Positions 1-23,533 of a stretch of 64,000 nt of DNA are shown one piece after another. Both the position numbers and the translations under genes were made by a program. The stretch is from Cetorhinus maximus (taxonomy: Eukaryota): the NCBI RefSeq assembly GCF_964194155.1, contig NC_135911.1, forward strand, positions 8,742,001-8,806,000, given 5' to 3'. Every line of letters begins with the position of its first letter. Position 1 is the first letter of the stretch. The notes below the pieces were generated by a model. It saw nothing but the letters and a program-made list of their open reading frames with translations, did no database searches and was not told the origin of the DNA.

Positions 1-374
1 GGAAGCGGGAACATTCCTTGAAAAATGCATCATATGCAACATTCATGTAGCAAATGTGAACCTTACCAGACAGGAGAAGAGCAATGCACGCAGTAGAAAT
101 CCATGCCAGCCAAGTCATATTAAAGTGAGAAAAGCCGCCTTCCCTTCCTACTTGCAGCGGAGCCAGTGACAGCTCACGGCCAGGGGTTGCTGGCTGAGCA
201 ACTCGACAACTGCAACTCACCCTGTTGCACTTATCAGGGAGGAAGCAAAATGTGTCACAAATGATGCATGCGCAATTTTTAATTTCTCTCTCCCTCTATA
301 AAGCCCCTGAGGCATTAGTTCCTGCCAAGAGCTGATTGCAGCTATTGCAGCGATCATTTACAGCAAGGTTCCTG

Positions 375-5283: not shown

Positions 5284-5332
5284 ATGGCATTAATGGTTTG
5301 GATGTCGATGGCATACATTGCTCTTCTGTCTG
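5284..5332 (+). CDS. Exon 1, signal peptide MALMVWMSMAYIALLS
   Basis: Hydrophobic 16 aa after ATG, phase-1 donor G|gtgagt matching the phase-1 V exon. Confidence 0.7.
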
Positions 5333-8300: not shown

Positions 8301-11300
8301 ACCACCACCTTCTCAAGGGCAACGAGGGATGGTAATAAATGCTGGCCGAGCTAGCGAAGCCCACATCCTGTGAATGAATATCAACAAATAAAGGGGCTTG
8401 AGGAAGCATTTTTTTTTTAACACAGCGAGTTGTTGTGACCTGGAAGGCGCTGCCTGAAAGGGTGGTGGAAGCAGATTCAATAGGAATTTTCAAAAGGGGG
8501 AATTGGATAAATACTTGAAGTGGGGAGACTACAGGGATATAGGTAAGCAGCAGGAATGTGGGAAATTGAATAATGCAAGTCCTATATACAAAACCGACTA
8601 CACCGTAAAAGACCTTCATTAACTATTAGGGACCTCCTGAGGTTGCGAGAGACCAAACGACCTAGGAGCAGAAATAGGCCATTTGGCCCATCGAGTCTGC
8701 TCCACTGTTCAATGAGATCATGGCTGATCCGATAATCCTCAACTCCACTTTCCTGCCTTATCCCCATAACCCTTGATTCCCTTACTGATGAAAAATCTGT
8801 CTATCTCAGCCTTGAATATATTTAACGACCCAGCCTCTACAGCCCTCTGCGGTAAAGAACTCCAGAGATTAACTACCCTCTGAGAGAAGAAATTCCTCCT
8901 CATCTCTGTCTTAAATGGGCGACCCCTTACTCTGAGGTTATACCCTCTGGTTCTAGACTTTCCCATAAAGGGAAACAACCTCTCAGCATCTACCCTGTCA
9001 AGCCACCTAAGAATCTTATATGTTTCAATAAAGTCGCTTTTCATTCTTCTAAACTCCAATGAGTACAGGCCCAACCTACTCAACCTCTCCTCATAACAAA
9101 ATCCCTCCATCCCCGGGATCAACCTCATGAACCTTCTCAGGACTTCCTCCAAAGCCAGTTTATCTTTCCTTAGATAAGGAAACCAAAACTGTTCACAGTA
9201 TTCTAGATGTCGTCTAACTTGTGCCTTGCAGTTTTAGCAAGACTTTCCTATTTTTATACTCCATTCCCTTAGAGGCCCAACTATTTCTTTAATGACTTAT
9301 CACTGCATTGTAAATTCCATAATAACTCAAGGTTGTTACATTATGTAATACAGCATACATTCTTCCGTATTCAAATCTTCATACCAATTTCTATTTTGAC
9401 AATGGCAGATCAGCATTTTGATGCATTGGCACATATCTAGCCAAGAGTTAACAATACTGAAGGGAGATGAACTTATCAAACAGAAAATATTGCCATAGTT
9501 TTAGGCTAAGGGCTGGTAGATTTAAATCAGAGATGAGGAGGAATTACTTTTCTCAAAGGGTCGTGAATCTGGGGAGTTCACTACCTCAGAGTCCAGTGGA
9601 TGCCGGGACGCTGAATAAATTTCAGGAGGAGATAGACAGATTTTTAATTAGTAACGGGTTGAAAGGTTATGGGGAGAAATTGGAGTTGAGGCCAAAATGA
9701 GGTCAGCCATGATCGTATTGAATGGCGGGGCAGGCTCGAGGGGCTGAATTGCCTGCTCCTGCTCCTAGTTCTTATGTTCGTCCTTCGATTCCTTTAGTTT
9801 AAGAGGTTGGCCAATTTTGGAAGGTCTGGTGACAGGTAAAAATGTGCCTTGGACTATGAAGCTATTGGGCGTTATCACATCAGCCGCTTAGTTGCAATGA
9901 AGTAAATGGAACTTGAGATCACATTGGAAATACACCGGGTGACCGATGCTATATATCCCGCTATTTTTCCATAGAGCCTCCTAACGCTCCACTGAGTCCG
10001 GGTATAGCCTGCAGGTCACATACATTGGGTTCACCACATTGGGATTTTTTTTGACCCATTCGTGGGATGTGGGCATCGCTGGCTAGGCCGGTATTAATTG
10101 CCCATCCCGAATTGGCCTTGTTCAAAGGGCATTTAAGAACCAATCACGTTGCTTGTGGGTCTGGAGACACATGTAGACCTGGCCAGGTAAGGACGGTAGA
10201 TTTCCTTCCCTAAAGGACATTAGTGAACGAGATGGGTTTTTACAACAATCGACAATGGTCTTCATCAGACTTCTAACTGCGGATTTTTATTGAAATCAAA
10301 TTCCATTGTCTGACATGGTGGGACTTGAACACTGGTCCCCAGAGAATTACCCTGGGTCTCTGGATTACTAGTCCAGCTGCAGTGTCAACTTCTGACCAAC
10401 AGTAAAACTCCCTCTTCAGCCGCACTCTATGCCCCAGGTTACGCCTCCCACTCGCACAGGCCAACTGCAAAGCGACAGACACTGACGGCTCTTACTGACT
10501 GGGTGAACGAGTCAGACACAGTTTCCAATTCTGGGAATGCCTCAGTGATGAATGGGTAATATCGCCAGGCTTTAGTCACTGCTGCCCGTCTACCTGCAGT
10601 CCATCGAGGGTCTCAGGGTCTTTAGGCAGCTCGGTTTTCTGCGTGTTGCTACATTTCGATCCAGCCCTGCATCTCCCTCAGAAGCTGGAAATCTGACCAT
10701 TTCCTTTAGTCCTCCCCACCCCCCACACCCCCTCCCCCAACACAACCAACACCCATCGCCAGGCAATTCTTGTGAGGGATGTTGACTTCTTCCACCACAT
10801 GTAGGGTATAAGTACAAGCTGCACCTTACTGAGGACAAGCATGGTTTGAATGGAAAGCCATCGCCTTACTTCTTATATTCCTTCCAGTCCCCCATTACCT
10901 TCTTCCCTCTTTTCTCAACTTTTTACCTCGGCCCTCTCTCTCTCTCTCCCTTTCCATAACATCTTCCACTATCTGTCCTCATTCGCTTGTTTTCCTGCTG
11001 TATTTTCCATAGTTTCCCTCCACTGTGTCTGAGGATTGCCCTGCACATTACCATCACCAGGTTCACTTTCCAGGCCTAGGAGGGTGGCCTCCCATCTTCA
11101 ACCAGTCCCCCAAACTCCGCCTTCAGCCAAACACTTGCCCCAGGTTACAGTTCACAGAACTTTAACGGCACAGAAGGAGGTCATTCAGCCCATCGTGTCT
11201 ACATAAAGTCAGGATGGTGAGTGACTTGGAGGGGAACTTCCAGGTGGTGGTGTTCCCATCTATCTGCTGCCCTCGTCCTTCTAGATGGTAGCAGTCGTGG

Positions 11301-14300
11301 GTTTGAAAGGCGCTGTCGAAGGAGCCTTGGTGAATTCCTGCAGCGCACCTTGTAGATGGTACACACACTGCTGCTACTGTGCGTCGGTGGTGGAGGGAGT
11401 GAATGTTTGTGGATGGGGTGCCAATCAAGCGAGGCTGTTTTGTCCTGGACGGTGTCAAGCTTCTTGAGTGTTGTGGGAACTGCATTCATCCAGGTAAGTG
11501 GACAGTATTCCATCACACTCCTGACTTGTGCCTTGTAGATCGTGGACAGGCTTTGGGGAGTCAGGAGGTGAGCTACTTGTAGCAAGATTCCTAACCTCTG
11601 ACCAGCTCTTGTAGCCACAGTATTTATATGGCTAGTCCAGTTCAGTTTCTGGTCAATGGTAACACCAGGATGTTGATAGTGGGGGATTCAGTGATGGTAA
11701 TGCCTTTGAACATCAAGGGGAGGTGGCTGGATTCTTTCTTGTTGGAGATGGTCATTGCCTGACACTTGTGAAGCACGAATGTTACTTGCCACTTGTCAGC
11801 CCGAACCTGGATATTGTCCAGGTCTTGCTGCATTTGGACATGGACTGCTCCGGTATCTGAGGAGTCTTATGCAAAAGCCAAAAATATTAATGAAAGCGAA
11901 ATCACCCAAGGAAAAATGAGTTCTTTATTTAGCATATGAAAAGCAACATCGGAACAGGAGGAGGCCATTCAGCCCCTCGATCATGCGCCGCCATTCAGTT
12001 GCTCTGCTTGACATTCAGTTCTGCTGGTGCGAATGCAGCTGAATATCGGGCCGAGCGGAGAATGGGCGAGCCAGGGAGCAGATTTCTCCCCCCTCCCCGG
12101 ACGGAGCCTTGTGGGTAAGCTGTCGGATAGTTGAAGCTGCATTTTCTTACTCCTCAGATATGCCTGTTGAGGATTTAATGTTCCTTCAGAGCCTCTGATG
12201 CGGATTGAGGAGAAATCAGCTTCCAATGTGTTTCCTAACCCCGCCAATTATTGTTGTTCCTGCAGCTTCAACCAGTAACCACGTTACAGCTGTGACCCTT
12301 ACCGCTCTTGTTGGGACTGAGGTACTGCTTCCATGCCAGATGACACAAAACAGCACCATTTTCACACAGCTCGAATGGAAAAAGGGCCCTGAGAATAAAA
12401 AGTTCGCAGTGTATCATCATAAATTCGGGATAACAATCTCAGGTGAACGGTACTCCAGTCGGGTCGTTTTCAGAAACCATTCACGGCTGGATGGATCAAT
12501 TCTATTGAAGGCTCTGGAGATGGAGGATCAGGGGATGTATACGTGCAGCGTCACTTTATTCCCCCAGGGAATAACTGAGAAAGTAATGAATCTAACGATA
12601 TTAGGTGTGTATTCTACATGGAGCATTGTTCATGTGAAGATTCATTTGTGGGGAAATGTGATGTTCATGTGGAGAGGGGGGAGGGGGCTGAATTTTGGGT
12701 TGTGCATCCGGGTGTAAACTTAATACCCCTGCAATGATCATAAAAACTGTTGTTGTCTAATTCTAACACTTTAACCTAGTCACATTCTAGCTCCGATTCA
12801 TTATTTTATCATAGAGCTATTACTGAGATATTTAGTGTTTGTTTAACAGTTGCAAGTGAAGCTTTTATTTATAGGAAGGTTGGGAGTGTTACATCCAGAC
12901 GAGTAAAGTTTATCATATTCGTCTTCTCCCATTATTGATAGCCACATTCTGCAAAGATATCAGAGCCATTGACGACTCTCAGCAATCAATCTCTACCAAT
13001 TAATCTCTAACAGGTACAGACAAGAGGCAAGAGAAATCCCCATCCCCAGCGCTGGAGAACTTTGGGAAGCAGATCTACACCACAAGCATGTTGCACTGAT
13101 CCCGCGTCACTTCACACACTCTGTCAGATACACTACCCCTCCCTGTATTCTTCACCCTACTGCAGCTCTTTGACGCTCTCTCCCACTTCCTCGCCGTCCA
13201 CAATCGATCCCCCATCACTCACTCTCATGGTCGATTCATAGATCCACTTCTCTGAGTCCTGGTCTGGCCTGCAGGTCACAGGCATTGGTTTCACCGTCCT
13301 GGGCTTCAGTGCCACCTCTCACCCTCCAGCATGGTTCCAACACTCTCCCTTCAGCCGCACACTAGGCCCCCAAATTGCCCCTCCCGGTGGCACAAGCCCG
13401 TCCTTGTGGCACTTGCTGATTGGGTGATCAAGTGCCAATGATACAGTTTCGATCATGGGCATTTTTCTCAGTCCTGAATCTGGAACATCGCCAGCTTTTT
13501 GTCTGCCATTGCCGCAAAGACACCCCCTTTCCCCCCCACCCCCACCCCCCTAAAGATGGGGGCAGGGCCCAGAGCCAAGCCAGTTTCTCACACGTTGCTG
13601 CATTTCCACCCACCTGCCCAACCCTCTCGAAACCTAGCACTCCGACCATTTCCATTGGTCCTTCCGCACCCAGCACCCCCCCCAACAACACCCGTCGCCA
13701 GTCCCATCTAGGAAGACCCATCCCTTTGGCACCATCTGTAATGCATAAGCACAAGTTGGATCTGACTGAGAGCAATAACGTGGCTGAATTGAGACCAATC
13801 GCTTTGCTTCTTATATTCCTGCTCATTCCTTCCATTCCCCCATTGCCTTCATCCCTCACTTTCTTACCTGGGTCCCCTCTTTGCCTGTAACAACATCCAT
13901 TATGCAGTTGGGCCATTTGCTGGAGACATGTAAATATTGACAGGATCTGGTTTCTGGTTTTTTTTTGCTCCGGATTAATTGCAAGCTGCTGACATGGTTG
14001 AAACAGACGTTGAGTTAATTTCTGGTTTATCTCTCCAAGCAATTCCCAATAACAGGGCGATCCCGGTTCCCGCACGGACTGCTAATTCAGAAGTGCCAGT
14101 GGCAAATTGTACTTCAGCCAACGGAAACCCAGCAGCCGAGATCACGTGGATTTCCGGTTCCCCTGGAAACTATACAACAACCCTGATTGAAAACAGCAAT
14201 GGGACAAAAACTGTTATCAGCCTGTACAAGAGGGCACCCAGTGACTATGATGATGGTCAAACGGTGACATGTGTTATCTCCCACCCAGCATCAAGCAGCA

Positions 14301-17300
14301 CAGATTATTACACGATAACATTATCGATCCTCTGTAAGTTCCGTATACAAAGACGATTAATTCCAATAGTCGCTTGGTAGGACAGAACTTGAGTATTGCA
14401 GAAAAAAGAGACACGTTGAAGTTTTTCACCTTGCACTCATCAGGTATTCGCAAGAATACCGATATAATGGGGAAAACAACAATTTATACTGCATGTGAAG
14501 AGAGTGTTGGTTGGTTGGCAAGCGGACTCTGATTGGGCTCTGTGTATTAATATATGTAGCTTCCTGTACACACAAACACACACACACGTTGTTTTCCCTT
14601 TATTTTGGTGTTCTTGCAAAGTGTCCTGTTGAGTGGAAGACAAAAAGCGTCCACGTGTCTCTTTTTTCAGCGATACACAAATAATGTAATCCAATTCAAA
14701 GCGCGCTGCAGTTGAGTAATAAGACAGCCAGCTCCTCCCCTAACTAGAGAAGTGTTAAACTTCCCTCACTGGCTGAATTGACATTTTCTGGGTATCCGCG
14801 ACTCCAGGATTGCTGGGCCGGTTCAATGTGACCGGTTGTGGTTGATTCGCCAGCTGCCCATTTGCAAACCCCAGCCTCACATATTAAATAAGTCAAAAGC
14901 GATGATTTTCTTTCGGGAGGTTAGAGTTAAGGGAGGTTGCATCATTTTCTGGGCGTAAAGACTAGTTTGCAGCAATTCGGGGTCACTTCAACTTTGGATG
15001 GTTAGGCCCAGTGGGGTGTTTCCCAATGTGGAAGTTGCTCTATCAATGCAGCCGGATGCCGCAGTTCAGAATGAACCTCGGCCTGAATCATGGGTTATCG
15101 GAGCCTGCAGCGCCTCTCAAGCGACATGTTAATCTGTGGTGGTTTTCCTTTGAGGTTGTGGTTGCTCTACACAAGACATGTGATTCACCTAACACGAAAG
15201 GCAAAGACTGTTTTAAATATGTGGATGGGCCAGAGCTACTAACCTGCCATTTCCTGCCACTCTGGCCTGTTGTGCAAAAGCACCAATGTGGACTCTCTGC
15301 TGTGTTGGATGTACTGACCACATGAACACAATAATTCCCTCTGTAGATCCACCAGAAGTGACCATAACAGGCTATGATGGCAACTGGAGTGAAAACAGAG
15401 GGGATGTCACCCTCAATTGTGAGGCCAAAGCCAATCCCCCAGCAACAAATTACACTTGGCAATGGTAAATATGCGCTTCATTTATGAAGAATTGCATTGT
15501 GTATATTTTCAAAACTGTGTAGATCATGGATCGCTCAGATGCTTTCATACGGTTTGTGACCTGGTTGTTGAACTGGAAACAGGCTTCTCCGCACGGGTTT
15601 TGTTTACATGTCTCTGCTTTAAGGGAAACATTTGTGGAAAAAGCTGTAGTCACGCGAGGGTGTTTAACATGAACCTTCACTGACTGACTCTGGATGTATA
15701 TCTGTATATGTATATCACAGAATCTGTGACCCGTGGGCAGGTCGATACAGATTGGCAGAGCAGCGAGAGGCCATTTGCTGAACTAGTGTGGTAATAGGTG
15801 TTGCATACTTGAGATGCAGAAATGCCAACTGAATCCCAAATGAACACGACCAAACTTCCAATTTGATGCCTCGCTATTTGGGTTCCTGAAAAAATAAATT
15901 GCGTTAAAAACCTGGAGAGCCATTTGAAATGTGTCCCCTACAAAATACAACTGAACCAAAATAACCACTTGTATCTTGGGTGTAAATTTTTCTTTGGGTC
16001 AGTTAAGGACATGGTGGGCAGAGCGAACATCGCGATTCACCAGAAACAGCATTAAGAATGCGGAGAGAGAAGGAGAAAATGTAGTGTGTGTAAGATCATC
16101 ATGTATGCCATATTTATGAATGTGATGATGGGGGTAGTGCGGGGGTGGTGGGATTGAATGGCTTTAATATGGGGGTAAATGTTGACCACAATACAGGAGT
16201 ATGTGTAGAGCGGCCCAAGCAGCCCAGGTGGGAAAGAGCTGATATAACCAGCCCAGGGGAGAGGCCCCAAATTCAGGAGAACTTCAACAAACAGCGATGA
16301 GGGGTACAGTTGTATGATGTTCTGTACCAGAAACCTTCAGGATTATTTTCATTATGGGCGACTTTGGGAAACAGCAAAATGTAGGATTTTTGATAACTTG
16401 TTCATTATCACCATCTCTTGAGTGGGTTATTTGATATTGTCTAGTTTCTTCACTGGTTTTCTTCAATCCTGCACCATCCGCATCTCAGTGCTATCCACCC
16501 ATTCGGTTCTTCTTCTTCCTCTTCTCTTTTTACCTTCAATTCCTCCTTCAGCTGAGGCCAGGTCTTCGTTTCCGATCTGTGTACTTGCTCATCAATCTGT
16601 CTCCGCCTGTGCTTGGCAACCCTTTTGATTCCTGAACTTCTGCTCTTGACCTAAGCCACTCTTTGGCCTTTCTGTCCATCCAGCTGATTCTGAGCATCCT
16701 CTGCCAAACCCACATTTCAAAAACCCTAATCCCCCTCTCATCCTGTTTCCACAGAGTCCAAATCTCACATGCAATGGATGCAACACTCTACGCTGTTGAC
16801 CGTACCAGATATTTTCTTTTCCACCTTTACGCTGATGCTTTTGGATTTACAGGGATGACGTAAATCACTGGTCATGCCTCTTGCTGTAGCTAATCTACCT
16901 GGATTGCATTCTTGGGTATAACTTTGGTGTTTATCATCAAGTCAATGTACTTGAAATTGTCCCTCTATCTCGGTGCTTCCAATCTTGACTTTCCCATCGC
17001 TGTTTAGAGCCAGAACATTGGTCTTTAACTCATTTATCTCACGTATGTCATTCATGCCCTACTATACACCACGACTAACATCGCTTACCGTCCAGCGATA
17101 CAATCCGGTGGAGCATATCTGCTCTTTGGAGGCCAGAGCTAATATTCGTCACCTAGATTTAGTCACCAAGGCATTTCTTAAAATTGCATTGTTGGCTCTT
17201 CCAAGGTTACCAGAAGGAGTGGAGGCTAAAAATGCACGTGTATTCATAAAGAAAGTGAGCAATTTGATGAATGGGACCTGGATCTGTGAAGCTACCAACT

Positions 17301-20300
17301 CAATTGGGACAGGAAGAGGCAAACTGGAATTAATATTAAAACACTCCACTAAAGGTAGGTACATGTTAATAGAGCAATAGAAAGGGCCAAATTCCCTTTC
17401 ATTTTGTTAATGAAAGTGTAAGTGTTGGTGTTAAATAAATGGCTACACATGAAATTAGGTCATCGGGATGATGAGTTCACTTTGAGATCTATGGAAATCA
17501 TGGAGGACGCTATAAAAATGCAACTTCTTTATTTCAACGACGAAAGATCCTCAGACCCCAAATGCCGGCCATGTTTTCAGGACCCACCATTTGTCCATCT
17601 TTACCCTGAATCTTCTCGAGGTCCTGTTGCTTTATAAGCTCTGATAACCAGTGGCCAACGTGAAGATTTTTTAAAAATTCTTTCACGCGTTGTGGGTATC
17701 GCTGGCTGGGCCAGCATTTATTTCCCGCCTCTCATCATCCTTGAGAAGGCGGTGGTGAGCTGCCTTCTTGCACCGCTGCAGCCCCTGTGGTGTAGGTACA
17801 CCCACAGTGCTGTTAGGGAGGGAGTTCCAGGATTTTGACCCAATGACAGGGAAGGAACAGCTGATATATTTCCAAGTCAGGATGGTGAGTGGCTTGGAGG
17901 GGAACTTCCAGGTGGTGGTGTTCCCAGGTCCTTGTCCTTCTAGGTGGTAGACATGGTGGGTTTGGAAGGTGCTGTGTAAGGATCCTTGGCGAGTTGCTGC
18001 AGTGCATCTTGTAGATGGTACACACTGCTGTAACTGTGCGTCGGTGGTGGAGGGAATGAGTGTTTGTGGAACTGGTGCCATTCAACTGGGCTGCTTTGTC
18101 CTGGATGCTGTCGAGCTTCTTGAGTGTTGTGGGAGCTGCACTCATCCAGGCAAGCGGGGAGCATTCCATCACACTCCTGACTTGTGCCTTGTAGATGAAG
18201 TATATTAATTATATGTGAAGTTACTTTTCAAACAGCCTCTTGCATTTCCATAGGGCTAGAAAGGCAGATTTTTCTGCTCAGTTACCTGCAATTACAGAAT
18301 TGCTTGGGCTCCCCGAGTTCAGGGAATTTGGTTCATTTTGAGGACACATCTGAAGGATTTTAATGTATTCCCTCACACGAGGCAATGGAATACCATGAGC
18401 TATTTCCTGTTGATCATCCTGGCCTAATAATAAGGGCCATTGAAAAAGTAATTAATCAGCACATGAATCGGGATGTAATTGCATTTCCCTTGTGTTTTCC
18501 CTCCAACTATTTCCTCATTGAAGCTTCTTTCTTATTCTTCCACGGGATGTGGGCATGGCTGGCTGGGCCAGCTTTGATTTCCCAGCCCTAATTGGCCTTG
18601 AGAAGGTGATGCAAACAACACCCCCCACCAAAGCTGGTAATCAAAGAGGTGCGAGGGAGAGGTGCAATAATTACTGTCCACAATCAGTGTACTCGACTTA
18701 CCACCGAGCAGATCCCGTCAGTTCCAATTCCCGTTTTCAATTACATTGTCCTTATTTCTTTCAAAGCCAATTCCGTAAATGATACTGCTGTATTTGTCAC
18801 AGTTTCTCCCCCCCCACCCCGCCACTGTGTCCGAGTATTGCCCTGCACATTACAATCATCGGCTTCATTTTCTAGGTCTGCAGGGTCGCCTTCCATCTCC
18901 AACCAGCCCCAAAATCTCTGTCTTCAGCCAAACAGTTGCCCCAGTTCACAGAATCACAGCATTTTGATGGCGCAGAAGGAGGCCATTCAGCCCATCATGT
19001 CTGCACCGACTCCCCCTCTACAGTTCGCACCGGTCGCCTCAGGCCAACAACAGCGGTGCAGATCCTCACCCTTCAATGTTGACCGGAATATCAGACCTCA
19101 TGCCTTCTGCATCAGGAGGATTTCTTGGTCCCAGCATTGAAATGCCGCCTCTATTTTGTTAATTACTGCTCCATATCCTGCCCCTCCCCACCACAACCCC
19201 CCCCACCAAACATAGTCCACCATTGGTGGCGGACCCTTCAGTCAACTTCAGCCAAGCTGTCCTTGCAACACACCATTACACATTCCTCAGAAGCTCCTTG
19301 CTTTGCAAATCCGTTTTGGCCTCTCTCCTCATCCCCACATGCAGCTTGCGAAGGCTCTTAGCTACTTGCCACGTGAAATGCACGAGAGAAAGTAGTGTCC
19401 CCCCCATTAAAAAAAAAGTGCCCCTATTGCCCTCCCCCACCCCAACTAAAAAGAGATTGTTCCTGCTTTTCCTTCGTTTCATCCCCAAGCCCCTTTCCTT
19501 CCATCTTATTCTTCCTTCCTTACTTCCACCCACTTTCTTGCAGCGATGACCGAGTGAAGGCCTATGGGGAGGCAGCTGGAAGTGATTGGGCTCAGGACCT
19601 CGGTTTCACAAGCGCCTGCTGGTTGCCCAGGGTTGTGATGGTTTTACCGCGTCCACCACCGCCCAATATGTCAGGCCTAACTCAATTGTTCCCATCACAG
19701 CGTCTGATACGGGAAATGAGAACTGCCCGTCCCATTGGCTAACAAAAATTTATCACAGAAGCAAGGTTATTGATAGGAAGCTCAGAAAGAAGATGTATTT
19801 TTTAAATTACTAATTTGTACCCATTGGTTTACTCCCTATTCGTTTCTCGACGATCATTTCGCAGATCATGGGAATGGAAAGCTCATCATCCCATGTGTGA
19901 CATTGGGAGTAGTGGTGTTTGCCCTGTCCACGTTTCTCATTATTCTATTCATCAGGCGAAAACGCAGATCAGCAGGTAAATCATCAGAAAATGAAAGGTG
20001 AAACCAAATACCTACACGACTACAGATATTTCAACTCGGCGCTAGTGTTCATTAGTTCCACCGTAACATCATTTAACTTTCTTAGGTTACTCTGGTTTCA
20101 CTTTCCCGCCCGCTTGCTCTCTCATTCAATTCAATTCCCGAGGATCAGCTATTTGCTAATAATCTACCACAAGCCAGCAAACTATGTAGTTTACACTTCC
20201 TCTCAGCCTGCTCCCTATATAGACTCTACTCTCTTCTCCCAGTATCTTCATCGCCATTGCTCCTTCACTTATGATGCATCCTTCCATGCTACTGCTCCTG

Positions 20301-23300
20301 ATAGGTATGCCTTCCTTCTTCCTCAGCTGAGGATCCCCACTACCACCCGACTAATTGACAGGGCCCCTAAATATGACCGCCCCTTTTCTCATACGTCAAC
20401 TCACCCTCTTCCCCTATCAGCACCCCTCGCCCCCCTCCACCAAAGCCGCTACAGGATTCTACTTGCCCTTACCTTTCACTCCACTATCTGCTACAATCCA
20501 ACAGGTCATTGTCCGCCATTTCTGCCACCTCCAGTAGGATACCACCACCAAACGCACCTTCCCCTCCCCTTCCCTTTGAGCATTTTGAAAGGGACCAATC
20601 CCTTCGTGACACCCCAGCTCACTAATCAATGACTTCCCCCACTTCCCGCCACACCAAATCCAGAAGATGTACCACGTGCCTTGTTACCTCCCCACCACCA
20701 CCACCACCCCCACTTCCCAAATTCCAGGGCTGCAAGCGCTTTTTAAGGGGAAACAGTGATTTATTTACACCCCTTTCAACTTGACTTATTGCCTTTTTGC
20801 TGCTCACAATGCAGTCTCTTCTAAATTGGGTGACCAAAAGCACATTGACGATTGCTTTGTACACCACATCCATCCAGTCTGCAACTGTGTTCCCGAATTC
20901 CTGTCATTTTAATTCTCCGCTCCACTCCCACTCTGACCTCTCTGTCCTCGGCCTGCTGCAGTGTTGTAATAAGGCCAATGGAAGGCAGAGGGGAAGCAAT
21001 ATATTTTTCGATTCACACCTGCCTGGGCTTAATTTTGAGTTCAACAATTTCAGATCGTAACCCCTGCCCTTCTTTCTTGGTCAGCAGCTGTTGGTAATCA
21101 TTCTGCTGTTACCATTCACACCTCCTCTGCACCCTTCTTTTGTCCCTTTGCATGCCCCACTGCCAACCACTTTTACTTATTGTCAACGTTCCTTGTGTCA
21201 TTTAATCGTGTAAGTCGCTTTAAGCTTGTTGCTTCTTTCACCTTTTCCAGTCCTGACTGACAGGGCAACAGCGGAAACGTTTGATCTGCTTCTGCCTCCA
21301 GTGAAGCTGCCTGGCCTGCTGAGAATTTCCAACAATCTCTGCCTTTATTTCCGATTTCCAGCATCTGCGGTATCTTGCTTTTGCACCCTCAGTCAGAATT
21401 GGTGAGCTGGTTTACACCAGTGCATTCCTGCCTTTCATCAGTTGGAACAGCAGACGCGAATGTGCAATAACATAAGTCTCCTAATTTACAGTTACAGCCG
21501 AAACCTATGTCAACGTTCCCGTTCAACGAAAGACAATTGAGCAGGTAAGTTAAAGCTGCATTAATAGTTAGTAATTTCAGCTCTTTACTAAACATTTCGC
21601 TTCCACTATTGACAGCCTCAACTGTTTGCACCCGACCGGAACCACATGATAGCAATTGGTGTTTGAGACTGTAGCATTTAGCACAAATGGTTCACGTCTT
21701 AGTGACATCCCAGACAGTTATCTCTGGAATATGTCAGTGTTCTGTATCACCAAAAATATTGTTCCAATGGCTTTGCATCTTTCCTCCAAGCCATTTGCCA
21801 TCCTGACTTGGAAATATATCGGCCGTTCCTTGACTGTCGCTGGGTCAAAATCCTGGAACTCCCTCCCTAACAGCACCATGGTTGCACCTACACCCATTTG
21901 CTGCAGCGGCTCAAGAAGGCAGCTCACCACCACCTTCTCAAGGAGCAATTAGGGATGGGCAATAAATGCTGGGCCCAGCCAGCGACGCCCACATCCCCAG
22001 GAATGAATAGTAAGAAATAATAGCAGAAGAAAAACGACACAGCTTTTCATTCATATGAAAGCAGAAAATGCTGGGAAAACTCAGTACGGGCTCGAAACGT
22101 TGACTCTGCCCCTCTCTCCACAGATGCTGCCAGACCTGCTGAGCTTGTCCAGTATTTTCTGTTTCCGTTCCAGATTCCCAGCATCCGCAGTGTTAAGCTT
22201 TTCATTGGCTGTCAACGGGGCACACAGATTTGAGATAATTGGCAAAAAAGCCAGTGAGATGTTAAGGTTTCTTTATCCTCCATGGACCACGCCGTTTTGA
22301 TCTGAAAGGGATGCTGAATAGGCTGTGGAAACAGATTCAATAGTCAATTTCAGAAGGGAATTGGGCAAACGTTTCAAAAGGAAACTCTGCAAGGTCATGC
22401 AGAAAGAGTAAGGGAGTGGGATTAATTAGGGAGAACTCTTTCTTAGGGCTGGCACAGGCAGTACAGGCTGAGGAACCAGCTTCGGCTCAGTGTGAATTCA
22501 TGATTCTGTGAATGATTCTCATTTACTACCCAGAGAGTTGTTGACGCATTTGTCCCCCTGTTCATTGACCGTGCTGTACCCGCCTGTCCCCATGTCGTCT
22601 TAGCTCTTCTGTTGATGCCAATGCCTGATTGTTCCTGAATTGAACCGTATTCACTTTTATGTTCCAGGATTTGTCAGATGTGAACGCCACTTACATGGTA
22701 GGGTGGAAGGCATATTAATTTCAAGTGAAACTTTATTTAGGTAAATGGACATTATTGAGTTACTAACAAATCGCACTTGTGGCAACTTCCCGCAGGGCCT
22801 GAACTTAGCGGAACAATCGGTATACAACGAATTACAGAGGTATAATTTATTCTGCTTCATTAACTGTGAGCCAATCCACCGACATCATGAATATATCTGN
22901 NNNNNNNNNNNNNNNNNNNNNNNNNNNNNNNNNNNNNNNNNNNNNNNNNNNNNNNNNNNNNNNNNNNNNNNNNNNNNNNNNNNNNNNNNNNNNNNNNNNN
23001 NNNNNNNNNNNNNNNNNNNNNNNNNNNNNNNNNNNNNNNNNNNNNNNNNNNNNNNNNNNNNNNNNTCACACTGTCTGCCCCTCTGTCTGTCTCTCTGTCT
23101 GCCTGTCATGCCTGTCTGTCATGTCCACCTGTCTGCCTGTCTCTCTGTCTGTCTGCCTGTCATGCCTGTCTGTCATGTCCACCTGTCTGCCTGTCTCTCT
23201 GTCTGTCTGCCTGTCATGTCTGTCTGCCATGCCTGTCTGCCTGTCTATCTATCATGTCTGTCTGTTTGTCTGTCTATCTATCATGTATGTCTGTTTGTCT

Positions 23301-23533
23301 GCCTATCTATCATGTCTGTCTATGGAGCATGTCTGTCCATCTCTCTGGCTGCCTGTCTCCCTCTCTCTTTCTCTCTCTCCCCCTCTGCCTGTGAAAGATT
23401 CTTTCAGTTCCCTTCCACTTCCAGCCACGATCTTAGAAGTAAATACTGTGCTGTTCCCATTTACTTTGCACAGATTGATTCTCAGGCAATGACTGGACTA
23501 ACATTTATTTTAACATCTCTTTTTTTCAGATAA
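5284..23533 (+). CDS. Nectin/PVR-like type I receptor with 3 Ig domains (V-C-C), TM and ITT-like + ITAM tail; 10 coding exons, 1185 nt, 394 aa
   Basis: Exons 5284-5332, 12266-12604, 14040-14333, 15347-15464, 17206-17354, 19865-19975, 21498-21544, 22668-22697, 22796-22839 and 23530-23533 are joined by GT-AG introns in one open frame (phases 1,1,1,2,1,1,0,0,2) ending ...SVYNELQR*. Nectin motifs: FTQ, AVYHHKFG (AX6G), LFPQG, YPPEVTITGYDGNW...CEAKANPPA. Confidence 0.88.
5455..6275 (-). mobile_element. CR1/L2-group LINE fragment with SINE-shared 3' tail
   Basis: LRKLDTIQDKAA...; same family as 11205-11870, 17680-18200, 34355-34790 and 41715-42150. Confidence 0.7.
8660..9270 (-). mobile_element. 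CR1 LINE 3' fragment
   Basis: YEERLSRLGLYSLEFRRMKSDFIETYKIL...RRNFFSQRVVNLW. Confidence 0.85.
11205..11870 (-). mobile_element. CR1/L2-group LINE RT C-terminal fragment
   Basis: QQDLDNIQVRADKWQVTF, STIYKAQVRSVMEYCPLTW. Confidence 0.8.
12266..12604 (+). CDS. Exon 2, nectin-type IgV domain
   Basis: Acceptor ttcctgcag|, donor |gtgtgt; LLPC...QLEW...AVYHHKFG...DGSILL...EDQGMYTCSVTLFPQG. Confidence 0.93.
14040..14333 (+). CDS. Exon 3, second Ig (C-type) domain
   Basis: Acceptor ctctccaag|, donor |gtaagt; VANCTSANGNPAAEITW...DDGQTVTCVISHP, typical of nectin domain 2. Confidence 0.93.
14401..14668. mobile_element. Short Penelope-derived element with inverted termini bearing minimal hammerhead-ribozyme cores
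   Basis: 14401-14458 is an imperfect inverse of 14607-14668; the minus strand reads CTGATGA-GTGCAAGGT-GAAA-AACTTC. Same family as 31535-31856. Confidence 0.6.
15347..15464 (+). CDS. Exon 4, N-terminal half of third Ig domain (118 nt)
   Basis: Acceptor ctctgtag|, donor |gtaaat; YPPEVTITGYDGNWSENRGDVTLNCEAKANPPATNYTW closely resembles nectin-1/3 and PVR domain 3. Confidence 0.93.
17206..17354 (+). CDS. Exon 5, C-terminal half of third Ig domain
   Basis: Acceptor ttccaag|, donor |gtaggt; LPEGVEAKNARVFIKKV...NGTWICEATNSIGTGRG. Confidence 0.92.
19865..19975 (+). CDS. Exon 6, transmembrane segment
   Basis: Acceptor tttcgcag|, donor |gtaaat; DHGNGKLIIPCVTLGVVVFALSTFLIILFIRRKRRSA (uncharged TM plus basic stop-transfer). 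Confidence 0.9.
20150..21385 (+). mobile_element. Decayed Penelope-like element (RT end + GIY-YIG)
   Basis: HFNSPLHSHSDLSVLGLLQC...PGLNFEFNNFRS matches the GIY-YIG end at 44250-44390. Confidence 0.7.
21498..21544 (+). CDS. Exon 7, cytoplasmic, ITT-like motif (AETYVNVPVQRKTIEQ)
   Basis: Acceptor ttacag|, strong donor CAG|gtaagt; 47 nt converts phase 1 to phase 0. Confidence 0.8.
22668..22697 (+). CDS. Exon 8, cytoplasmic, first ITAM tyrosine (DLSDVNATYM)
   Basis: Acceptor cttttatgttccag|, donor ATG|gtaggg; 30 nt, phase 0-0. Confidence 0.8.
22796..22839 (+). CDS. Exon 9, remainder of ITAM (GLNLAEQSVYNELQ-R)
   Basis: Perfect branch point TACTAAC at 22761, acceptor cttcccgcag|, donor AG|gtataa. 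Confidence 0.82.
22900..23390. repeat. Masked plus visible (TCTG/TCTA)n microsatellite in the last intron of the ITAM gene
   Basis: N-run flanked by ctgt/ctat repeats. Confidence 0.8.
23530..23533 (+). CDS. Exon 10 coding part (A + TAA stop), followed by 3' UTR
   Basis: Long pyrimidine tract tctctttttttcag| then ATAA completes AG|A (Arg) and gives an immediate stop. Confidence 0.72.

Follow-up and report, generated by a model that had tools for sequence, protein, structure and literature searches.

Several CEACAM genes form receptor/decoy pairs. In CEACAM1/CEACAM3, and in Xenopus or reptile CEACAM pairs, a receptor with an inhibition motif of the immunoreceptor tyrosine-based type (ITIM) and a switch motif (ITSM) is paired with an adaptor-independent receptor that carries an activation motif (ITAM). 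Three reports (PMC5112662, PMC2832619, PMC13278318) describe opposite orientation, gene conversion, diversification of the CC'C''FG face, four tail exons, a YxxL split by a phase-0 intron and a YxN motif in these pairs. We analyzed a 64,000-nucleotide stretch of the basking shark Cetorhinus maximus genome (contig NC_135911.1, positions 8,742,001 to 8,806,000; hereafter the window, whose numbering is used unless a contig is named), and here describe a gene encoding a nectin-type receptor with an ITAM in its spliced tail (the ITAM gene), together with its ITIM/ITSM-bearing twin. The shark pair shows the above features of the CEACAM pairs, probably including gene conversion, as well as their YxxL-x7-Yxx spacing. 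By analogy, this locus probably encodes paired receptors with a nectin/PVR-type ectodomain, of which the ITAM gene would be the activating member, a matched decoy for a microbe that would exploit the inhibitory twin. Unlike CEACAMs, the shark ectodomain is not of the CEA type, and there are usually one or few shark genes rather than a large cluster.

PVR/CD155 (Necl-5) resembles the shark pair in its V-C-C architecture, the lack of an afadin-binding end and fast evolution, and shares an ITIM with the twin; PMC7286890 confines PVR to placental mammals and makes no use of the word ITAM. Classical nectins 1-4 are similar throughout the three Ig domains, in fold as in sequence, but the shark pair lacks their E/A-x-Y-V end, its binding face is not conserved, and the genome holds a separate nectin-2-like gene. 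CD226, TIGIT, CD96 and PVRIG share the PVR-signature V domain, opposing signals and a YxN-type motif with the pair. The ectodomains of these four are dissimilar, and none of the four is known to carry an ITAM; nor is PVR known to have an activating twin. Viruses classically use nectins and PVR for entry, and these proteins also serve as checkpoint ligands. The pair would be a case in which a second adhesion family gave rise to the CEACAM decoy design; it also casts doubt on ITIM-bearing PVR-type nectins being exclusive to placental mammals, and would point to a shark microbe that binds it. We found no description of the pair in literature on nectins, sharks, ITAM/ITIM pairs, lamprey, hagfish and Ciona, a survey of mostly titles and abstract openings in which subscription papers were poorly covered. 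Tunicate nectins with ITIMs are mentioned in PMC4016189, and further comparison literature included PMC3858274 and PMC12065747. The ITAM gene sequence itself is already in an NCBI model (P0001), labelled just "nectin-1-like".

Gene structure and the exon-split ITAM

Ten predicted GT-AG exons of the ITAM gene, all on the forward strand, join into a single open frame of 394 residues that encodes a V-C1-C2 receptor. For comparison, 43 proteins were collected from databases, all relatives being gene models. ITAM-type tails were found in eight shark species: Cetorhinus, Carcharodon, S. torazame, Mustelus, Hemiscyllium, Chiloscyllium, Stegostoma and Pristiophorus. Exon 1 (5284..5332) encodes a type-specific signal peptide and lies outside the tract shared with the twin; the twins differ there at 7-11 of 14-16 residues in each of six species. 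Exon 2 (12266..12604) encodes the Ig V domain with the PVR-type motifs F-T-Q, A-x6-G and F-P-x-G (Pfam V-set 9.7e-16; best PDB match nectin-1 D1; 96% to the twin), exon 3 (14040..14333) the second Ig domain, C1 (Pfam C2-set_2 3e-16; best PDB matches PVR and nectin-1), and exons 4 (15347..15464) and 5 (17206..17354) the first and second halves of the third, as judged from the open frame and Pfam. The transmembrane (TM) segment in exon 6 (19865..19975; helix 327-352 in the structure model) has no charged residue, as originally claimed, and none of the eight ITAM-type TMs holds K, R, D or E. A candidate stalk exon near 18877 was dismissed as repeat-like, with a similar stretch near 11070.

The original prediction placed four tail exons of 47, 30, 44 and 4 coding nucleotides at 21498-21544, 22668-22697, 22796-22839 and 23530-23533. 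AG/GT ends, phases (1-0-0-2) and the open frame confirmed them at these positions; exons 7-9 and the ITAM stand, and the last exon is uncertain. Exon 7 carries a Grb2-type YxN motif (YVNV), present in 7/8 species, and has an alternative in-frame AG 6 nucleotides upstream. Exon 8, of phase 0-0, ends at position +1 from the first ITAM tyrosine, and skipping it would delete that tyrosine in frame; the S. torazame model P0043 lacks exactly these 10 residues. Exon 9, which has a single copy in the genome, supplies the remaining ITAM including the second YxxL. The complete motif, YMGL-x7-YNEL, conforms to Yxx(L/I)-x6-8-Yxx(L/I) and is the only match in the frame to the wider pattern Yxx(L/I)-x6-12-Yxx(L/I), at residue 378. 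Exon phases bear out the claim that a phase-0 intron splits the first YxxL after Y+1 (YM/GL, the slash marking the intron). The likeness to ITAM adaptors that had been drawn from this split also holds within this genome, where the adaptor gene at G000:C356:1999-12220 (L024, L025) has an FcRgamma/zeta-family TM exon followed by two ITAM exon pairs split in the same way (YE/EI, YT/GL). Note that PMC4016189 reports no FcRgamma homologue in sharks. Lacking an acidic residue at Y-3, the tail motif is "ITAM-like" in the CEACAM sense.

Exon 10 would provide only the last base of an Arg codon and the stop, and lies outside the ITAM. Its acceptor is strong in sequence (CTAAC at 23498-23502, a T-rich tract and CAG), and P0001 does not use it: all 394 residues of this basking shark model are identical to ours, followed by 19 residues read into intron 9. 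Exon 10 is probable rather than certain, as the QR-stop ends of relatives could also stem from donor read-through. The ITAM is identical in both models despite their different ends, and an afadin/PDZ-binding C-terminus is absent in either of them and in every pair-family tail.

We estimated how often such a split motif arises by chance by counting phase-0 donor/acceptor pairs of the form Yx-intron-x(L/I)-x6-8-Yxx(L/I) in 88 control stretches of equal length at three pyrimidine thresholds. Pairs occurred in 2/88 controls with a loose filter and in 3/88 with none; a requirement of 10 of 15 pyrimidines, the strictest setting, passed 0/88 controls, but the real exon-9 acceptor fails it as well. 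Conservation across species is the stronger evidence for the split ITAM. Both tyrosines and the 7-residue spacer, whose conservation had been proposed as a check, are kept in all eight species with a complete ITAM-type tail, and local identity among the tails of six species from five shark orders is 36-91%. The TM and tail together gave nothing above noise against Pfam, PDB and Atlas (best Atlas score 0.82). When homologues were sought with the tail by itself, the query was the sole match out of 20 candidates and known relatives were missed too, which makes this search uninformative. In one possible RNA run only repeat-rich bins were covered, with depth 0 at the bins of the V, second C2, TM and ITAM exons, which has no bearing on expression.

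The nectin-type V-C-C ectodomain of the original prediction was recovered by Pfam, PDB, profile and fold searches alike. Pfam assigned V-set and CD80-like C2-set domains; the closest solved relatives by sequence were nectin-1, nectin-3 and PVR; and the structure model (mean predicted local distance difference test score 82) had nectin-1 as its best Foldseek fold match (E 9e-33, 38% to human nectin-1). In the profile search, nectin-1 scored 266 bits vs 90 for CEA, nectins far outscoring CEA and CEACAMs, so that no CEA-type N and A/B domains are indicated. Orthology to CD96 was considered in view of the Carcharodon label "tactile-like" and a resemblance of the F-G strands, but the scores do not favor it: CD96 D1 reached 40 bits vs 62 for nectin-1 D1 in the V-domain PDB search, and CD96 was not among the best 60 of 88 profile-search matches. 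As to the PVR signature, (V/I)(S/T)Q, A-x6-G and (Y/F)P-x-G in PMC4749091, the second and third motifs are present, and the first reads F-T-Q here and L-T-Q in the twin. The trees contained no mammalian sequence, and Porin_3, CLPTM1, APP_E2, LSR and TCR_zetazeta, used as marker families, had no match on C34, so the contig was not placed relative to mammalian synteny. A nectin-2-like gene lies 1.3 Mb off at C34:10.06-10.08 Mb and matches the Heptranchias "PVR cell adhesion molecule related 2 like" protein to the last residue; further nectin-type genes are on C2, C7 and C4867. By sequence, the gene pair is nectin-like but neither a classical nectin nor a CEACAM. The ectodomain had also been described as of adhesion or virus-receptor type; its nectin-type nature stands, refined in that it is common to the ITIM/ITSM twin and not to a classical afadin-binding nectin.

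The ITIM/ITSM twin and probable concerted evolution

The original prediction overlooked a head-to-head twin. In a genome search, a V exon with 96% identity appeared 9.5 kb ahead of the window's first position, on the opposite strand. The gene that contains it (P0002) has eight exons that reproduce the database model exactly. Exon 1 is at 67..118 (-) of the window, and the rest is upstream of the window at G000:C34:8718700-8732788; the start codons of the twins are 5166 bases apart. One last exon encodes both motifs of the twin's tail, the ITIM IVYATL and the ITSM TVYADV. In its ectodomain, residue 48 bears an additional N-glycosylation sequon, which is absent from the ITAM gene.

The tract common to both genes, 11206..18777, has its inverted copy at G000:C34:8733841-8726235, with 95.4% identity over 7624 columns; between 12000 and 15249, each 250-base bin reaches 96.8-100%. 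It takes in introns, which diverge by 1.1% (V-C1), 1.6% (C1-C2) and 4.2% (within C2). The 3' end of the tract coincides exactly with the acceptor of the twin's TM exon; at the corresponding site of the ITAM gene (18773..18778, +), AA stands in place of AG. Outside the tract, blastn matched none of the leader, TM and tail exons to the twin, save weakly for exon 1. In DNA contigs of one sample, depth inside the tract was about twice that outside (9-12.5 vs 3.6-5.3; 108-144 vs 57-70, with one outside piece at 99), values that are not a copy number. A haplotype-duplication artefact was ruled out: the copies are inverted, exon 1, TM and tail differ, and five further species likewise have both types.

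Family members were found in 11 shark species, with an ITAM-type tail in eight, an ITIM-type tail in nine and both in six; the strict ITAM pattern was present in 11 of the 43 collected proteins. In this genome the pair joins, as linked genes, highly similar ectodomains to opposing tails; for other sharks, linkage is suggested only by contigs of equal length. By sequence, the pair is older than the galeomorph/squalomorph split, because the sawshark Pristiophorus has both types. This split took place roughly 250-300 million years ago. In rays only a neighboring gene (G3, described below) was returned and in chimaeras nothing, by searches too insensitive to call absence. Two genera show additional copies: the Carcharodon ITAM models (P0004, P0038, P0040; at least two genes) have a V domain only, as in CEACAM3, and Mustelus has several divergent ITAM-type or truncated copies (P0200, P0016, P0026, P0021).

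We then compared trees of different gene parts. In the ectodomain tree (27 rows), the ITAM and ITIM copies were sisters in 6/6 species having both, with support of 93-100, two of the six pairs unstarred and some rows partial; a V-only tree of 20 full-length models gave the same sister pairing by species. A single clade of the eight ITAM ectodomains was rejected (approximately unbiased test, p-AU 4e-7, quick tree). On the other hand, the TM and tail tree (18 rows) separated eight ITAM from ten ITIM rows at 100/100, the ITAM-type tails forming their own clade. Ectodomain identity was 88-98% between twins within a species vs 46-75% between ITAM orthologues of different species. This contrast, with species deciding the grouping of ectodomains and type that of tails, makes long-running gene conversion likely, a sign known from paired receptors. 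The analogy to CEACAM3 made in the original prediction is thereby upheld, and is better founded through the inhibitory twin and the conversion signal.

Variable binding face and the proposed role of the pair

Using nectin-1 homology, we picked 19 outward front-face and 11 back-face V sites before the columns were inspected. In the pair family (11 species), front-face sites averaged 37% pairwise identity and back-face sites 79% (permutation p=1e-4), and the pattern was reversed in the unpaired neighbor G3 (87% front, 50% back). For whole segments in the same four species, identities in the pair vs G3 were 41% vs 74% for C-C'-C'', 52% vs 83% for F-G, and 62% vs 61% for D-E (p=2.5e-4). Between the twins of this genome, 4/5 V differences (I48, F49, H68, T113) are within front-face segments. 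The back (B-E-D) face of V (12266-12604), unusually conserved in the pair and not in G3, is a conserved surface without explanation.

We consider a decoy role likely; it would operate as follows. Ligand would bind the C-C'-C''-F-G face of the V domain, and clustering would let a Src-family kinase phosphorylate both ITAM tyrosines. The phosphorylated ITAM would recruit Syk/ZAP-70 and the YxN site Grb2, leading to uptake or cell activation with no adaptor chain needed, while the ITIM/ITSM twin would recruit SHP-type phosphatases. Conversion would copy the twin's ectodomain into the ITAM gene so that a microbe is unable to distinguish them, and its grip on the inhibitory twin would be turned into an activating signal. 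We infer the signaling steps from established ITAM/ITIM biology and the decoy role from the CEACAM precedent.

Several observations weigh against this interpretation. Regarding the motif, the ITAM gene has N instead of an acidic D/E at Y-3, and just 1/8 ITAM-type species has the acidic residue; the strict consensus is found in 7/8 species, Stegostoma having V at the first Y+3; the Pfam ITAM model matched none of the seven ITAM-type proteins tested; and the relative models P0016, P0026 and P0043 lack a whole ITAM. Regarding the pair, no ITAM copy was found among database gene models for S. canicula, Heterodontus and Heptranchias, and no ITIM copy among those for Mustelus and Chiloscyllium; opposite transcriptional orientation was seen in this genome only; and, the shared tract extends over V, C1 and C2 together with introns, unlike in CEACAM pairs, where the V exon is mainly affected. 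Regarding the binding face, the front/back comparison is a protein-level proxy and not a ratio of non-synonymous to synonymous rates, with faces assigned by hand from nectin-1 homology and checked against predicted strands only. Twin-to-twin differences pooled over six species are in excess on the front (32/288 vs 17/384, p=0.0014), an excess resting partly on one Carcharodon copy (p=0.057 without Carcharodon), and the V exon differences in this genome (5 non-synonymous and 4 synonymous codons) are no proof of selection.

The twins could also form a pair tuned to a host ligand in the style of CD226 vs TIGIT/CD96, both binding a host nectin-family protein and setting an activation threshold, with conversion equalizing their specificity. 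The product of the nectin-2-like gene 1.3 Mb away, or of the neighboring single-V ITIM gene described below, would be a candidate ligand. The retained PVR-type motifs A-x6-G and F-P-x-G, the clustering of nectin-type genes on the same contig and a YxN reminiscent of CD226/TIGIT tails are in line with such tuning. However, a conserved host ligand should keep the face that binds it constant, which is what G3 and the nectin-2-like gene show, and the pair shows the reverse; V identity between Cetorhinus and Heptranchias is 76% for the nectin-2-like gene vs 55% for the pair. We regard a tuning pair as unlikely.

Less probable still is that the YxxL motifs are sorting or endocytosis signals instead of a Syk-binding ITAM, the gene acting as a non-inhibitory sink that draws ligand off the ITIM twin. 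The missing acidic residue in 7/8 species and the lack of a Pfam ITAM match would fit such a sink, and YxxL/M/V/I/F is also an endocytic consensus according to PMC2832619. The same paper, however, describes eutherian CEACAM ITAM-like motifs likewise without the acidic residue, and the 7-residue spacing fixed in 8/8 species and the phase-0 split common to ITAM adaptors of this genome argue for an ITAM. Finally, a spliced tail that is an annotation construct, or a copy that is a silent by-product of inverted duplication, is very improbable: relatives are gene models, the exon-9 acceptor is modest and models diverge after exon 9, but the frame is open across ten exons, the tail is conserved as its own clade in six species, and the loose chance rate is 2-3 of 88.

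With the decoy as the preferred reading, a pair matched by conversion across five shark orders would be a concrete, testable innate receptor pair for cartilaginous fish. To look beyond sharks, 138 further profile-search proteins were surveyed; 47 (>720 residues) were dropped, 34 had no TM, and the ITAM pattern was present in 3 of the 57 left. Of these, P0090 is a hypothetical protein from a teleost, P0137 comes from a turtle and is labelled "nectin-2-like isoform X4", and P0104, from a lamprey, is labelled "nectin-3-like". The lamprey protein has a ~70%-identical paralogue, P0169, with ITIM/ITSM-like motifs. By eye, none of the three tails is similar to that of the sharks, and convergence or chimeric gene models may account for them; they are leads only. 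It is conceivable, though we give it a low probability, that the nectin/PVR family ran its own CEACAM1/3-style arms race since before living sharks split, possibly since early vertebrates; ITIM-bearing PVR-like receptors would then be ancient and the activating twin lost in mammals.

Neighboring genes and other loci

A single-V PVR-family gene is encoded on the reverse strand of the window (58012-57650, about 52400, and 49853-49716), with a V-set domain (8e-16), a weak PVRIG match, a TM exon and a last exon with two ITIM-like motifs, making it TIGIT/PVRIG-like. In Heptranchias, a single model (P0007) combines the counterpart of this gene with the ITIM twin. A second copy of the two-ITIM last exon lies at 26986-26867 (-), the copies being 68% identical in DNA over 415 columns; the window yielded no V exon to go with it. 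An additional PVR-type V exon on the same contig (G000:C34:6604506-6604877; L016) had no C-domain exon matched within the next 35 kb. Amid these immune genes, the window also contains a single-exon frame of 323 residues for a rhodopsin-family G-protein-coupled receptor (33640-32669, -; 7tm_1 4e-17).

G3 is a third nectin-like V-C-C gene (G000:C34:8702873-8690979, -; L004-L006) with a conserved binding face, and is also present in rays. Both of its tail tyrosines are replaced in Cetorhinus (VVHATL, TVNADV) and retained in Heptranchias.

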